64,000 bases of DNA, taken from positions 9,554 to 73,553 of IMG/VR virus record IMGVR_UViG_3300029813_000075. One strand, written 5' to 3'. Both the position numbers and the translations under genes were made by a program. This document shows, in pieces, positions 8,817 to 24,697 of the stretch. Every line of letters starts with the position of its first letter. The stretch's first letter is position 1. Origin of the DNA: a virus. Below the pieces are notes generated by a model. That model did no database searches, was not told where the DNA came from, and saw only the letters and a program-made list of their open reading frames with translations.

Positions 8817-9236
8817 TTATATTCTCGCATTTACTAAATATTGGGGATATTTGGCTCGAATAATAGCAACCATGTCCTTGACTCGATGATTGGCAGTCGC
8901 TTCTTTCAAGGACTGAATCTTCTCCATGATTTGTACATCCAAATCTTGTTGTTCTAAAAGATCTCTTCCTGAGTCGGCCAATTCAAAGAGATGGATATTA
9001 CCCGCCCTATAATGTTTCACATGGCCTTGGTCAATCAGAGAGTTGAATTGTTCTGCAACTACAGTGGAGTAAGGGCCAAACTGATAGGGGAAAAATTTGA
9101 AGTCGGCCTTCTCTTTGGCTATCTCTTTCGCAATCAAGAACAGTTGATGCACAACTTTGGTCTTGCCCTTAACGGGATCGCCTTGGAGCAGAGCCAAGAT
9201 ATAGGATTGGACTGTCATATACATCACCCATTGCAA
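8817..9236 (-). CDS. YwgA/DUF4065 (Panacea/SocA-like) winged-helix protein
   Basis: KGKTK...LFLI, FKFFPYQFGPYS signature, LIDQGHV...FELADSG. Confidence 0.65.
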   Translation of the reverse strand: MQWVMYMTVQSYILALLQGDPVKGKTKVVHQLFLIAKEIAKEKADFKFFPYQFGPYSTVVAEQFNSLIDQGHVKHYRAGNIHLFELADSGRDLLEQQDLDVQIMEKIQSLKEATANHRVKDMVAIIRAKYPQYLVNARI

Positions 9237-9982
9237 AAGTCTGAGAGCTTTGCCTGGTCGTGCAACGGAAATTCAATGCCTAGCCTTCGCGCAAGATTTA
9301 CTGATCGTAGCCACGTCATTGGTTCCTTTTTTCTCATACCAGGAAAGACACAAAATACAGGACATATGTTACACCCTGTACTCTGGATTCCGCCAAAGCC
9401 ATGTTCATCCAGAATCATGTCGACATCCCTATCCGAGCAGTCACGGAGAGGATAGTAATACATCCGACTGTTACGCTTGTGAACTCGAATGAGTGTATCC
9501 TGATTACGTAGTTCGGCCATCCGAAATCTTCTCATCTTCGCCCCATCAGAACCCTTGAGACCAAGTACCAGCACCACATCATCATCGAGCAAATCTATGT
9601 AATTGTCCATTGGCTTCTTCTTCAGCACATGACAACAATAGAAGTAATTCTTGTAAAATTTCCCTGTATCCTTCTTCTTCTTCAAAACCCGGGGGATCTG
9701 TTTGAATGACTCCTGAAGTATGTCTCTGATTGGCCTGTCACCATCATATTTCGTAGTCACAAGTTCATAGCCTGTCAACTCTTGAAGTCGGTGCAGAACA
9801 TCTTTGGCTCCACCTCTATTTAGACCAGTATCATTGAATGCCATGACTACATCCTTAATGTCAACATTCCAAGCTTCAAGCACCATAGCTGTTGAGTCAC
9901 GACCACCACTTGCCAAAATCACCACCTTGCGATTGGTTGGTAATTGGCTATAGTCGGGTCTATGAACAACCATTCCTCTCAA
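9224..9982 (-). CDS. PAPS-reductase-family (PP-loop) protein with PIP-like C-terminus
   Basis: ASGGRDS PP-loop, NDTG, CCHVLKKKP, LGLKGSDG..R, YPL.D, TGCNICP; ends QAKLSDFCNG. Confidence 0.88.
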   Translation of the reverse strand: MRGMVVHRPDYSQLPTNRKVVILASGGRDSTAMVLEAWNVDIKDVVMAFNDTGLNRGGAKDVLHRLQELTGYELVTTKYDGDRPIRDILQESFKQIPRVLKKKKDTGKFYKNYFYCCHVLKKKPMDNYIDLLDDDVVLVLGLKGSDGAKMRRFRMAELRNQDTLIRVHKRNSRMYYYPLRDCSDRDVDMILDEHGFGGIQSTGCNICPVFCVFPGMRKKEPMTWLRSVNLARRLGIEFPLHDQAKLSDFCNG

Positions 9983-10884: not shown

Positions 10885-11166
10885 ATGACAACAGAAGAAA
10901 CAGAAGCTGGCAACACAATTATTGAAGCTATGATGGCCGATGGTATGTCCAAACAGGATATCTCAGAATCTTTTGATCTAAGACGCAAAGGTCATGACAT
11001 ACTGATTGCATTTTTGAATGACGATGAAAATGATGATTCACTAAAAATGATGATATCATGGCAACCAATGACCGAGAAAGAAAGAGCCGATGAAAAGTTG
11101 CATGAAGAGTTGTACGGTAATTGGCAAGAAGTGCTGAAGTCAAATAGAGAGGGAACCCTACCATGA
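10885..11166 (+). CDS. Hypothetical acidic protein
   Basis: 93 aa, GGTGA RBS upstream, ATGA overlap with the methyltransferase. Confidence 0.65.
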   Translation: MTTEETEAGNTIIEAMMADGMSKQDISESFDLRRKGHDILIAFLNDDENDDSLKMMISWQPMTEKERADEKLHEELYGNWQEVLKSNREGTLP

Positions 11167-12890
11167 CAGAAATACCATCCTACCAAGAAGCCATTGCTAA
11201 GCCCGACAAAATACTCGAGTTTCAAGCGACTGCCGGACTCAAGTTCGGTTCCTGGAGCATGTTCTTCAATGACGACTCAGTCTCTCATCCTGCAAAGATG
11301 AACTTGAGAATGTTAGAATGGATCATTGAGAACTACAGCAAATCAGGCGATCTTATCATGGACATGTTTGCAGGCACCGGATCTACGCTAATTATGGCAT
11401 CCAGAAAGGGAAGAGATGCAATTGGCGTTGAGCTTGAACAACACTTCATTGATACCATGATTGTTCCTAACGTCAAAGCTTCACAGTCACAGACTTTGCT
11501 GTCGGGAGAGCTAGGGAAAATTATGATTGTGAAAGGTGACTCGAGGCGACTCGATCTAATCATTCCTCAGGCAATTGATGCCATTGTTACTTCCCCACCT
11601 TATGCTGGCACCAAGGCATTCGCTGACAAACAATGGATGATTGACAACATACCTGAGATCGAACAGAGAATCCGAGAAGGCAAAACAAAGGGCAACCCAA
11701 GATCACCAAAAGCCGAAATCAAGCACTTAGAAAAAATCAAAGATACAGAACATCCAGATAGCATTGACAACATTGACAACTATGGTCAGGTTGACACAAT
11801 TGTCAGCAGCCCACCTTACTCCGAAGCACTCAGCGTCAAAGCAGGTGGCGGAAGTAAAGACGTTCTTGAAGGCAAGGGAATAAAAGGTCGAGGTAAGTCC
11901 AGCGTACCCGTTCCGTATAGTGAGGGAGAAGATAACATTGGCAACCTAAAACATGGTCAGGTCGATGCTGTATTCAGCAGCCCCCCTTATGGTAAAATGG
12001 AAATGTCCAAGAAATTCAAGTCTGAAGCAGAGAAACTGGCATGGGCAGAGAAACAGTCCCTCATCAATGGCAGGTCAGTAAAGGCTGTACTTGCCAACCT
12101 GGATCGTTGGAAAGATTGGGGCGAAAACACTGACAACTTGGGCAACATGGAACATGGCAATATCGACACTGTGATATCAAGCCCACCTTACGGTGCCATG
12201 CTCAGTAAAAGGTCTGGTGGAGATGATCGGCCTGAAGCCATGCGTAGAGTAATGGAAGAAAATTGGGGATACTCACCAAAAATGGTCGAAAAGATACTAG
12301 CGGGTGAGACCAACGTTGGTGCATTCGTCACAAGACGTGGCTACAACTACTCCGGTGACGATGCCAACATAGGCAACCTGCCTACTGGTGAGATTGACTC
12401 TGTGATATCAAGCCCGCCATATGAAGGGTCTCTTGAAAATCGTGGTGGCACTCAACAGAAGTTCAAGCAAGAGAAAGGCACTCCTGCACCATATTCCAAA
12501 GACCCTGAAAACATTGGCAACAAAACTGGCGAGACCTATCTTGAGGCCATGTTCAAAGTGTACTTGGGTTGTTGGCTGGTGATGAAAGAAGGCGGCACAA
12601 TGGTGATTGTGGTCAAGAACTTTGTCAGGAAGGGCAAGCCTGTCAGACTGGATCTTGATACCATCAAACTCTGTGAGGCCGCTGGATTCAAGCTTGCTGA
12701 TCGATGGTGGTTCAGATTGCCTTTCAGATCCTTCTGGACAATCCAGCACACCAAGAAGTGGGCAATTGCACATCCTGACTCAAAGGAGCATCCATATGCC
12801 ATTTTTGAAGATGTTCTTGTCTTTGAGAAGGTGATTTCAAGCAAGACTTTACTTTTACTCCCCGAGATATGGAGTGATCAGATTGCCTGA
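11163..12890 (+). CDS. Amino (N4-C/N6-A) DNA methyltransferase with five tandem SPPY modules
   Basis: HPAKM, motif I DMFAGTGST, GVELE; five D.(V/I).(T/S)SPPY motifs; single C-terminal MKEGGTMVIVVKN...EDVLVFEK. Confidence 0.9.
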   Translation: MTEIPSYQEAIAKPDKILEFQATAGLKFGSWSMFFNDDSVSHPAKMNLRMLEWIIENYSKSGDLIMDMFAGTGSTLIMASRKGRDAIGVELEQHFIDTMIVPNVKASQSQTLLSGELGKIMIVKGDSRRLDLIIPQAIDAIVTSPPYAGTKAFADKQWMIDNIPEIEQRIREGKTKGNPRSPKAEIKHLEKIKDTEHPDSIDNIDNYGQVDTIVSSPPYSEALSVKAGGGSKDVLEGKGIKGRGKSSVPVPYSEGEDNIGNLKHGQVDAVFSSPPYGKMEMSKKFKSEAEKLAWAEKQSLINGRSVKAVLANLDRWKDWGENTDNLGNMEHGNIDTVISSPPYGAMLSKRSGGDDRPEAMRRVMEENWGYSPKMVEKILAGETNVGAFVTRRGYNYSGDDANIGNLPTGEIDSVISSPPYEGSLENRGGTQQKFKQEKGTPAPYSKDPENIGNKTGETYLEAMFKVYLGCWLVMKEGGTMVIVVKNFVRKGKPVRLDLDTIKLCEAAGFKLADRWWFRLPFRSFWTIQHTKKWAIAHPDSKEHPYAIFEDVLVFEKVISSKTLLLLPEIWSDQIA

Positions 12891-23417: not shown

Positions 23418-23876
23418 TCAGTAACTCCCCTCAGGAGCGATAATCAGACTCATGCTCGTGAATCCGTCTTCAAACTTCACAATGTCGTCAAAGGATCCTG
23501 AGAACCGTGAGAAGTAGTACTTGTCAATAACCTCCTTGACTGTCTTCACACTCAGATCAGTATCGATGGCTATGTAGAAACTACCATCACGCTTATCCTT
23601 CAACATCTTACCAATGATTGCCTTTGGTTCAAGCACAGACTTGAGCTTGTCTAAGATTCTCTGCAGGTCGAAGGCCTTCAACTGCTCGAAGTACCATTCA
23701 ATCTTGTCCTTGAACTGGTAATTCTCGCCATGTTCATCATAGAACTCGTGTGCCCATATCTCTATGTCACCCTCGTCTATGTTCAGCAGCTGCATGAGGT
23801 CTTCCTCAATCGCTGCCCATTCTTGTTCAACGTCACTGTACTTTGCTCTAAATTCCATTATTTTCCTTAACATCAT
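23418..23876 (-). CDS. Acidic hypothetical protein
   Basis: 152 aa; ATGA overlap with PCNA. Confidence 0.65.
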   Translation of the reverse strand: MMLRKIMEFRAKYSDVEQEWAAIEEDLMQLLNIDEGDIEIWAHEFYDEHGENYQFKDKIEWYFEQLKAFDLQRILDKLKSVLEPKAIIGKMLKDKRDGSFYIAIDTDLSVKTVKEVIDKYYFSRFSGSFDDIVKFEDGFTSMSLIIAPEGSY

Positions 23877-24697
23877 AATTTGGCTCTCCCCAAATTTATA
23901 GGCCGCCTCTCAACTCTTGGAGCTAATATCATCTCCACCTTGATTCCGTGAGAGTCAACCATCGAGAGTTTTATTGGCTTGTCTTTAGCAAACTCCAGAA
24001 ATACACCATCGTTACCCAGAATGAACTTGCGAAACAGGTGTAGATATTCCGCATCGTATCTAGTCGCAGCCAAGTCCTTCCAGTAGGCAAGCTCATGCAC
24101 ACAATCATCTGGATCTGCATAGAACTCGGCATTGAACTCACCAAAGTCACCCTCACCTTCAAACACGATCTTGTTCTTCTCTTCAACTGTCAGCGTCAAG
24201 TGCCGCGTTACTTTCATTGCAGACTTGAGAATGCTCTTGAAGGTCTTGCCCTTGATTGTCATTCCCACAGTGAAAGGCAAGCTTGGCTTCTTTGTCCTAT
24301 CATCCTTCGGAATCAATAATGCCAATGACTCTTGGTGCCTGAAGTCACTGTGACCTATCACCATGAACCGCCCACCGCCGCCTGTGTTGTCAAGCTGAAA
24401 CTCAAGCCTCTGCTTGGCTGTGACTGTTGCCCGCTTCAACTCTCCCGCGTTAATGGTTACTACGGTCTCCTTGTCTTTGCTGTCATACTCGTACTCGGCC
24501 AAGGCCGAGCTTGGAACATTCCAGTGTATCATGCACGCCTTATTATCGTCTAGCTGCCTCAGCATAATACCACCATTGCCCAACACCAGTTCCATCTCTG
24601 TCAACAAGGCTTCGCTTCCATCCATGATGGACTTCAACCTCTTGATCACGTCAGCGTCACACGTCACTGCTCTCATCATCTTCGCACAATCCTCCAT
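23873..24697 (-). CDS. pcn: DNA sliding clamp PCNA
   Basis: GIMLRQLD....MIHW.VP..AL.EY, F.GEGD.G, RYDAEYL, LEF..DKPIKL, ILAPRVE; two-domain PCNA length. Confidence 0.93.
   Translation of the reverse strand: MEDCAKMMRAVTCDADVIKRLKSIMDGSEALLTEMELVLGNGGIMLRQLDDNKACMIHWNVPSSALAEYEYDSKDKETVVTINAGELKRATVTAKQRLEFQLDNTGGGGRFMVIGHSDFRHQESLALLIPKDDRTKKPSLPFTVGMTIKGKTFKSILKSAMKVTRHLTLTVEEKNKIVFEGEGDFGEFNAEFYADPDDCVHELAYWKDLAATRYDAEYLHLFRKFILGNDGVFLEFAKDKPIKLSMVDSHGIKVEMILAPRVERRPINLGRAKL

Follow-up and report, generated by a model that had tools for sequence, protein, structure and literature searches.

The window analyzed here is a 64,000-nucleotide stretch (positions 9,554 to 73,553) of the IMG/VR virus record IMGVR_UViG_3300029813_000075, and belongs to a tailed virus with a portal, a major capsid protein and PolB. 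At 11163-12890 lies a gene for a putative amino-methyltransferase, P0001, in which one S-adenosylmethionine (SAM)-binding half and one C-terminal half are accompanied by five consecutive units, each repeating the beta-4 strand and the SPPY catalytic motif (motif IV) ahead of a different loop (Table 1). We refer to these units as cassettes.

Architecture of the gene and class of the enzyme

SPPY occurred at residues 144, 216, 273, 340 and 417 in the translation of 11163-12887, each time preceded by the strand pattern [VI]-D-x-[VI]-x-[ST]. SPP[YF] is the motif that holds the target amino group beside SAM. Each copy was followed by a loop of 29-55 residues that closed on a short clasp, and a single C-terminal half, with its conserved part at residues 457-556, stood behind the cassettes. 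The N-half also carries E92 and a G125-D126 strand followed by a helix; G71, E92 and D126 were invariant across 136 homologues. An earlier, sequence-only reading of this DNA had placed five SPPY units at 11577, 11793, 11964, 12165 and 12396, given the lengths of units 1-4 as 72, 57, 67 and 77 residues, and described an N[IL][GD]N closure, one SAM-binding motif I and one C-terminal half. The five starts matched D codons in the translation exactly and the positions of these codons bore out the lengths; a clasp was found after each of the five loops, and HPAK, FAGTGS and the C-half were each present once. Pairwise identity among the five loops was 11-28%, with no BLAST edge, and we conclude that the loops are unrelated. 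Five copies of a four-residue motif in one shared 10-residue context cannot be chance.

Analysis of domain matches placed P0001 with PF01555 (N6_N4_Mtase; 95 bits against a cut-off of 26.7, E 8e-27) and assigned it to PHROG 67, 'DNA methyltransferase'. P0001 gave no match to PF00145, the C5 core, and no NCBIfam model reached its cut-off. The PF01555 match was split. The part running from HPxxK through FxGxG, which is C-terminal in ordinary class-beta enzymes, is N-terminal in P0001 (aa 41-98), and the N-half aligned to profile positions 161-218 and to residues 205-269 of TTHA0409 (PDB 2zie). Given this N-terminal placement, P0001 is a circular permutant with the order X-I-II-III-IV...V-VIII, and not a class-beta enzyme in the strict sense. 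Motif I (aa 69) lies ahead of every motif IV (aa 144-417), and the beta-class order, in which motif IV precedes motif I with a target-recognition domain (TRD) between them, does not hold for P0001. In one detail the sequence-only reading calls for correction: with its permuted motif order, P0001 is no standard beta-class enzyme with added motifs.

The C-half profile matched TTHA0409 residues 69-130 weakly (the C-half alignment has 50% mean column identity); by this alignment the N[IL]GN clasp sits at QLGH of TTHA0409, just ahead of the helix that follows motif IV. A PDB sequence search with cassette 5 plus the C-half gave no match. A separate TRD was absent from P0001, and its one-cassette relatives are merely 291-319 residues long. 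In CcrM the loop directly after motif IV recognizes the DNA target, and in N4CMT without DNA the loop after motif IV is disordered (PMC10406627). The absence of a separate TRD, together with the role of the CcrM loop, makes the variable loops natural candidates for target recognition. We infer a DNA substrate and N4-cytosine or N6-adenine chemistry for P0001.

Table 1. Features of the P0001 gene and other open reading frames (ORFs) of the window; nucleotide positions are those of the window.
Feature	Residues	Nucleotides	Strand	Remarks
Whole gene, putative multi-cassette amino-methyltransferase P0001	575 aa + stop	11163..12890	+	ORF list, translation
N-half, SAM-binding	1-136	11163..11570	+	PF01555 and TTHA0409 alignment
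Motif X, HPAK	42-45	11286-11297	+	within N-half
Motif I, FAGTGS	69-74	11367-11384	+	within N-half
Cassette 1, type T2	137-208	11571..11786	+	SPPY at 11592-11603; helical loop; NIDN clasp
Cassette 2, type T17	209-265	11787..11957	+	SPPY at 11808-11819; Gly/Lys-rich loop; NIGN clasp
Cassette 3, type T10	266-332	11958..12158	+	SPPY at 11979-11990; helical loop; NLGN clasp
Cassette 4, type T18	333-409	12159..12389	+	SPPY at 12180-12191; helical loop; NIGN clasp
Cassette 5, type T13	410-456	12390..12530	+	SPPY at 12411-12422; NIGN clasp running straight into next helix
C-half	457-575	12531..12887	+	helix ETYLEAM..., beta-5 (GTMVIVV), helix, beta-6/beta-7 hairpin
C5-cytosine methyltransferase ORF	247 aa	13351-14094	+	PF00145
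C5-cytosine methyltransferase ORF	208 aa	14177-14803	+	PF00145
PAPS-reductase-like protein		9224-9982	-	PF01507, PHROG 424
Large ORF	575 aa	461-2188	-	no Pfam or PHROG match
Large ORF	1197 aa	2282-5875	+	no Pfam or PHROG match
Large ORF	1104 aa	46098-49412	+	no PHROG match
ORF		23873-24697	-	no Pfam or PHROG match at thresholds used

Cassette repertoire, position, exchange and selection

At E<1e-3, an exhaustive profile-free search for relatives returned 6376 cluster representatives, of which 439 also passed E<1e-30. SPP[YF] cassettes were present in all 240 homologues gathered, at 1-11 per protein: one in 4 proteins, two in 18, three in 58, four in 44, five in 41 and six to eleven in 75. Module number, order and content therefore vary among homologues rather than being invariant, as befits the modular enzyme that the earlier reading described.

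To define the repertoire, 1157 cassettes were cut from the 240 proteins and their loops were clustered without the constant parts. This analysis revealed at least 84 recurring loop types. A counterpart was found in another protein for 960 of the 1157 loops, and in the same protein for just 16. Within-protein repeats of a type (16 observed) were fewer than in shuffled data, which gave 47.8±6.0 and never fewer than 29 in 1000 shuffles. The order in P0001 is T2-T17-T10-T18-T13; its first type, T2, occurred in 43 other proteins, and its last, T13, was the last cassette in 63% of its occurrences. Positional bias was also seen for other types, with T8, T23 and T34, like T13, mostly last and T6, T10 and T14 never last. 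A minimal cassette of 32 residues (SPPYGNRL..D.A..DGD..RM.YRQ) was highly conserved in P0020, P0049, P0119 and about 30 other homologues. It has no N[IL]GN clasp, is similar to the DPPYG signature seen in Trm11/RlmL-type enzymes and never occurred twice in one protein.

To learn where cassettes lie along the chain, we located the N-half and the C-half in each of the 240 proteins with profiles. The layout N-cassettes-C was found in 213 proteins, cassettes-N-cassettes-C in 13 and N-cassettes-C-cassettes in 5. N-terminal cassettes opened directly with the strand, a few residues past the initiator Met. Both terminal arrangements were checked on contigs: upstream of P0139, which has N-terminal cassettes, the neighboring gene is an unrelated ParB-like ORF, and P0093 is a complete one-cassette enzyme followed by two full cassettes of the common types T4 and T0, ending at a genuine stop that is overlapped by the next gene. 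Since terminal cassettes run from the strand to just past the clasp, the unit consists of strand, SPPY, loop and clasp. These data show that cassettes are independent of chain position. A single giant composite loop from the first SPPY to the last clasp was also considered, and is ruled out by cassettes lying before the N-half or after the C-half.

In a related contig (L053:433-3778), two overlapping ORFs in different frames together resembled one 13-cassette gene. The first comprises the N-half and 7 cassettes; the second comprises 6 cassettes and the C-half, and starts MPNKK right at the strand. The two join at an A-rich run (CAAAAAAG), and the split may stem from a sequencing error in a homopolymer, from a programmed +1 shift or from a natural division into two polypeptides.

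Comparison of close relatives revealed replacement of single cassettes. P0004, with a core about 91% identical to that of P0001, has the order T9-T17-T10-T18-T13 (cassette 1 replaced), and P0002, with a core about 90% identical, has T2-T10-T10-T18-T13 (cassette 2 replaced); the replaced cassettes were 35-42% identical to their P0001 counterparts. Nucleotide identity between P0001 and these two relatives fell and recovered exactly at the SPPY and NIGN/beta-4 junctions. In more distant relatives, single cassettes were more alike than the cores: P0005 (seven cassettes, core 55-67% identical) ends in a cassette 90% identical to cassette 5 of P0001, and the loop of P0001 cassette 2 was 83% identical to a cassette of P0008, the core of which is merely 39-60% identical. 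With breakpoints at the junctions and cassettes more alike than cores, it is well supported that cassettes are exchanged separately from the core, through recombination in the conserved junctions. Gain and loss of modules by this route had been anticipated in the sequence-only reading and, like their replacement, are supported by the comparison of homologues.

We also examined selection on the cassettes. The ratio of nonsynonymous to synonymous substitution rates (dN/dS) of orthologous cassettes, measured against P0002 and P0004, was 0.065-0.14, compared with 0.04-0.10 for the two core halves. The individual values were 0.066 for cassette 1 (against P0002), 0.084 for cassette 2 (against P0004), 0.07-0.14 for cassette 3, where dS was raised, 0.08-0.13 for cassette 4 and 0.065-0.12 for cassette 5; dS was saturated in the replaced cassettes. 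Judged by these ratios, purifying selection acts on each orthologous cassette as strongly as on the core. SPP[YF] followed 848 of 883 beta-4-like strands (96%), with decayed forms (SPAY, SPSY, SLPY) in about 4%. The strand signature was equally strong in first, internal and last cassettes, the conserved Asp was present in 90-91% of internal and last cassettes versus 81% of first ones, and loop types seen first, internal and last had the same conservation at each position. Unused variants or mere linkers would not yield this combination of dN/dS values, motif retention and position-independent conservation. A decayed cassette was seen at residue 276 of the close relative P0003, with SPAY for SPPY and fused to its neighbor; cassettes can thus die in place.

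Proposed function, strand seating and rival explanations

Each cassette contains all that separates the two halves in one-cassette relatives, namely beta-4, SPPY, the type-specific loop and the N[IL]GN clasp. In relatives of solved structure, DNA is read by the loop at this place. We propose that each cassette supplies one target specificity. The most likely function would be self-protection of the viral DNA against several host restriction systems. As there is one SAM site, at most one SPPY can be catalytic per core at a time. In the simplest physical model, one cassette would fill the single beta-4 slot with the others looped out, the choice of cassette being made at folding or by strand exchange. 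That the cassettes give separate specificities, by whatever physical route, is the explanation towards which we lean, if only slightly.

To remove chain-position bias, the N-half (aa 1-136), cassette 3 (aa 262-331), the C-half (aa 454-575) and SAM were modeled as separate chains. The strand of cassette 3 (aa 267-272) came to lie with beta-1 (aa 63-69) on one side and beta-5 (aa 479-483) on the other; the SPPY region of the cassette lay against residues of the SAM half including E92 and D126, and its NLGN against aa 457-460 at the start of the following helix. The ipSAE score was 0.86, compared with 0.01 for the best control of three. Of the 78 solved complexes used to calibrate this score, 51 attained the mark, as did 2 of the 108 mismatched pairs. 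Three runs gave at least 79% contact agreement, with a partner predicted local distance difference test (pLDDT) score of at least 69. In this model an internal cassette fits the canonical beta-4 slot, which does not imply that it is seated there in the intact chain. AlphaFold2 was also applied to full-length P0001 (136 homologues). The N-half was modeled with pLDDT above 90 and the C-half with 89-97; all five cassette strands fell below 50, no beta-4 was built and none was seated. We regard this model as uninformative on mechanism. A Foldseek search of it against the PDB gave weak partial matches only, because it contains no seated strand. Alternative strand seating, as put forward in the sequence-only reading, thus went without a seated copy in the full-length model and gained compatibility, not occurrence, from the split-chain model. 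An extended sheet with the five strands side by side was rejected, as it would draw the SAM half and the base-binding half apart.

A more specific version of our proposal is a pick-one-strand enzyme, in which the two Rossmann-type halves would close round any tethered cassette, in line or terminal. We put it forward only tentatively and consider it rather unlikely. If it were true, one gene would give rise to an enzyme population or to a dynamically exchanging molecule, with as many specificities as cassettes, and viruses would re-arm the enzyme through cassette swaps at the conserved junctions.

Several points weigh against separate specificities or against alternating strands. We infer the substrate, the base and the number of specificities. 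No strand was seated in the full-length P0001 model, and in the AlphaFold2 model of P0093 the in-line strand was seated while the two appended cassettes were disordered, with no alternative fold. The split-chain score may reflect just that any beta-4-like strand fits a beta-4 slot, unseated hydrophobic strands would need to be tolerated, and the positional bias of loop types could mean that positions are not equivalent. No natural enzyme with an alternating central sheet strand is known to us. To these are added the structural neighbors among tRNA enzymes, discussed below.

Foremost among the rivals, and doubtful in our view, is a single working copy: only the cassette fixed in the core, either the first or the last of the row, would be catalytic, with the others accessory as a DNA-binding or clamping surface, as spacers or in oligomerization; this would imply one specificity or a relaxed one. 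It draws on the single SAM site, on the P0093 model with only its in-line strand seated, and on the positional bias of the seven loop types named above. An accessory role leaves unexplained the retention of SPP[YF] in 96% of strands and a beta-4 signature no less strict in internal copies than in first ones; it is also opposed by the occurrence of the same loop types in first, internal and last positions with equal conservation. The non-redundancy within proteins fits distinct specificities better than generic binding.

An enzyme that does not act on DNA seems improbable to us. It would be a Trm11/Trm14-like N2-guanine enzyme or some other methyltransferase of RNA or protein, with cassettes for several such substrates. 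AlphaFold2 built a confident complete core for P0093, and its best PDB neighbors were 5e72 (Z 20.0), 3tlj (19.8), 6zxv (19.6) and 3tma (18.9), with 172-180 residues aligned at rmsd (root mean square deviation) 2.3-3.2. These are the tRNA N2-guanine enzymes aTrm11, Trm14 and TrmN, and they favor an RNA enzyme, as does the order of motif I before motif IV. The structural aligner is sequential and penalizes circularly permuted DNA enzymes, which weakens this case. The likeness of the recurrent SPPYGNRL cassette to the DPPYG signature counts on the same side, together with a match of P0001 to PF01170 (39.8 bits against a cut-off of 22.3), although this match covers only a cassette junction (aa 281-351) and is far weaker than that to PF01555. 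By sequence, the strongest signal is that of PF01555, which includes the HPxxK motif X. P0001 gave no Pfam match to THUMP or another RNA-binding domain, its N-terminus leading straight into motif X, and the gene adjoins two C5 DNA methyltransferases in a replication/modification region of the virus.

We reject, as highly improbable, the idea that the cassettes form an in-frame reservoir, with one working and the others stored for recombination into the working position. Recombination at the junctions is evident and speaks for it; however, stored sequence should drift, whereas dN/dS was as low in every cassette as in the core, and only about 4% of strands had lost the motif.

Finally, an assembly artefact or a recent tandem amplification has practically no chance of explaining the layout and is refuted by the comparative data, the layout being present in independent assemblies, including P0002 (8 contigs from several samples) and P0004, and in hundreds of divergent homologues. 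Repetition at the DNA level was limited to junctions of about 37-60 nucleotides with 62-78% identity, and Tandem Repeats Finder reported no array. With junctions alone repeating, unrelated loops and no array, a collapsed or expanded assembly repeat is excluded, and the layout described in the earlier reading is real.

Relation to known systems, distribution and genomic context

P0001 shares with the class-beta N4-cytosine/N6-adenine enzymes (TTHA0409, M.PvuII, N4CMT, CcrM) the likeness of the SAM half, HPxxK, FxGxG and the acidic residue after beta-2. Its motif IV, S-P-P-Y/F, is as in N4-cytosine enzymes, and the succession of SPPY, short loop, G-containing clasp and next helix has a parallel in TTHA0409. 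It differs from these enzymes in being permuted (I before IV), in the absence of a separate TRD and in presenting motif IV, strand and loop five times; solved or described class-beta members never have motif IV more than once, whereas members of the present family have it 1-11 times. Trm11, Trm14 and TrmN have in common with P0001 the order X-I-II-III-IV-V-VIII and a (D/S)PPYG-type motif IV, and are the best structural neighbors of P0093; they differ in their THUMP domain, single motif IV and RNA substrates, and their sequence similarity to P0001 is weaker than that of PF01555.

The closest functional parallel would be the C5 enzymes of Bacillus temperate phages (M.SPRI, M.Phi3TI, M.Rho11sI, M.H2I), which combine several recognition domains with one catalytic loop (PMC12707154; references in PMC7544214) and were the only multispecific methyltransferases found described in the literature searched. 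These multispecific enzymes are thought to shield viral DNA from several restriction systems at once (PMC12707154). Like P0001, they are viral and join tandem, exchangeable and non-redundant modules to one cofactor core in one polypeptide. They belong to the C5 class (PF00145, PCQ loop) and P0001, in which PF00145 is absent, to a different one. The modules of the phage enzymes are recognition domains only, whereas those of P0001 each repeat the beta-4 strand and SPPY, and this repeated catalytic strand poses a structural problem that does not arise for the C5 enzymes. Multispecificity is demonstrated for the Bacillus-phage enzymes and proposed for P0001.

Strands that complete or enter a fold are familiar from donor-strand exchange in chaperone-usher pili, from serpin loop insertion and from engineered alternate-frame folding. 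To our knowledge, none of these is an enzyme choosing among catalytic strands to change its specificity, and mutually exclusive strand insertion has so far been known only from engineered proteins and non-enzymatic strand-exchange systems. If cassettes alternate in one core, P0001 would be the first natural enzyme whose specificity depends on which of several mutually exclusive beta-strands enters the center of the sheet. The full-text literature searched contained no description of an enzyme with a repeated motif IV, and so none of the present cassette layout (subscription-only literature and REBASE lay outside the search). If each cassette is one specificity, the family would be the amino-methyltransferase counterpart of the multispecific Bacillus-phage C5 enzymes and would be much more common than they are: its sequences form hundreds of clusters among environmental viruses, and its proteins have as many as 11 cassettes. 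It would then represent a major unrecognized viral route round restriction. With each of at least 84 short loops tied to a target sequence, it would also offer a natural dictionary, useful for predicting or engineering methyltransferase specificity.

A search with the C-half alignment located the family on 42 IMG/VR viral loci, on contigs of up to 87 kb. No family match was found by tblastn among 50,697 cultured-phage records at E<=1e-10, and a scan for conserved peptide patterns across 185,579 species genomes located it on just 4 contigs of metagenome-assembled genomes. The family is confined to uncultured viruses. In a search of sequencing runs, none contained the exact sequence; relatives sharing 5-8% of sampled words were found in cold-seep and marine metagenomes.

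In the window, the neighborhood of the gene includes PolB, the gene for a 3'-phosphoadenosine-5'-phosphosulfate (PAPS)-reductase-like protein and two C5 methyltransferases of unusually small size, which lie just downstream of P0001. In the relative L048 the second C5 ORF is replaced by a 372-residue protein with a weak B12-binding match, and the virus seems to have a DNA-modification block of variable content. The PAPS-reductase-like protein is encoded between PolB and the methyltransferase and may be another DNA-modification enzyme rather than a product of sulfur metabolism. No tRNA genes were found anywhere in the 64-kb window. Among the large ORFs without a PHROG match (Table 1), the one of 1197 residues lies directly ahead of PolB, which it slightly overlaps, and it is kept in L048 as a protein of 1132 residues.

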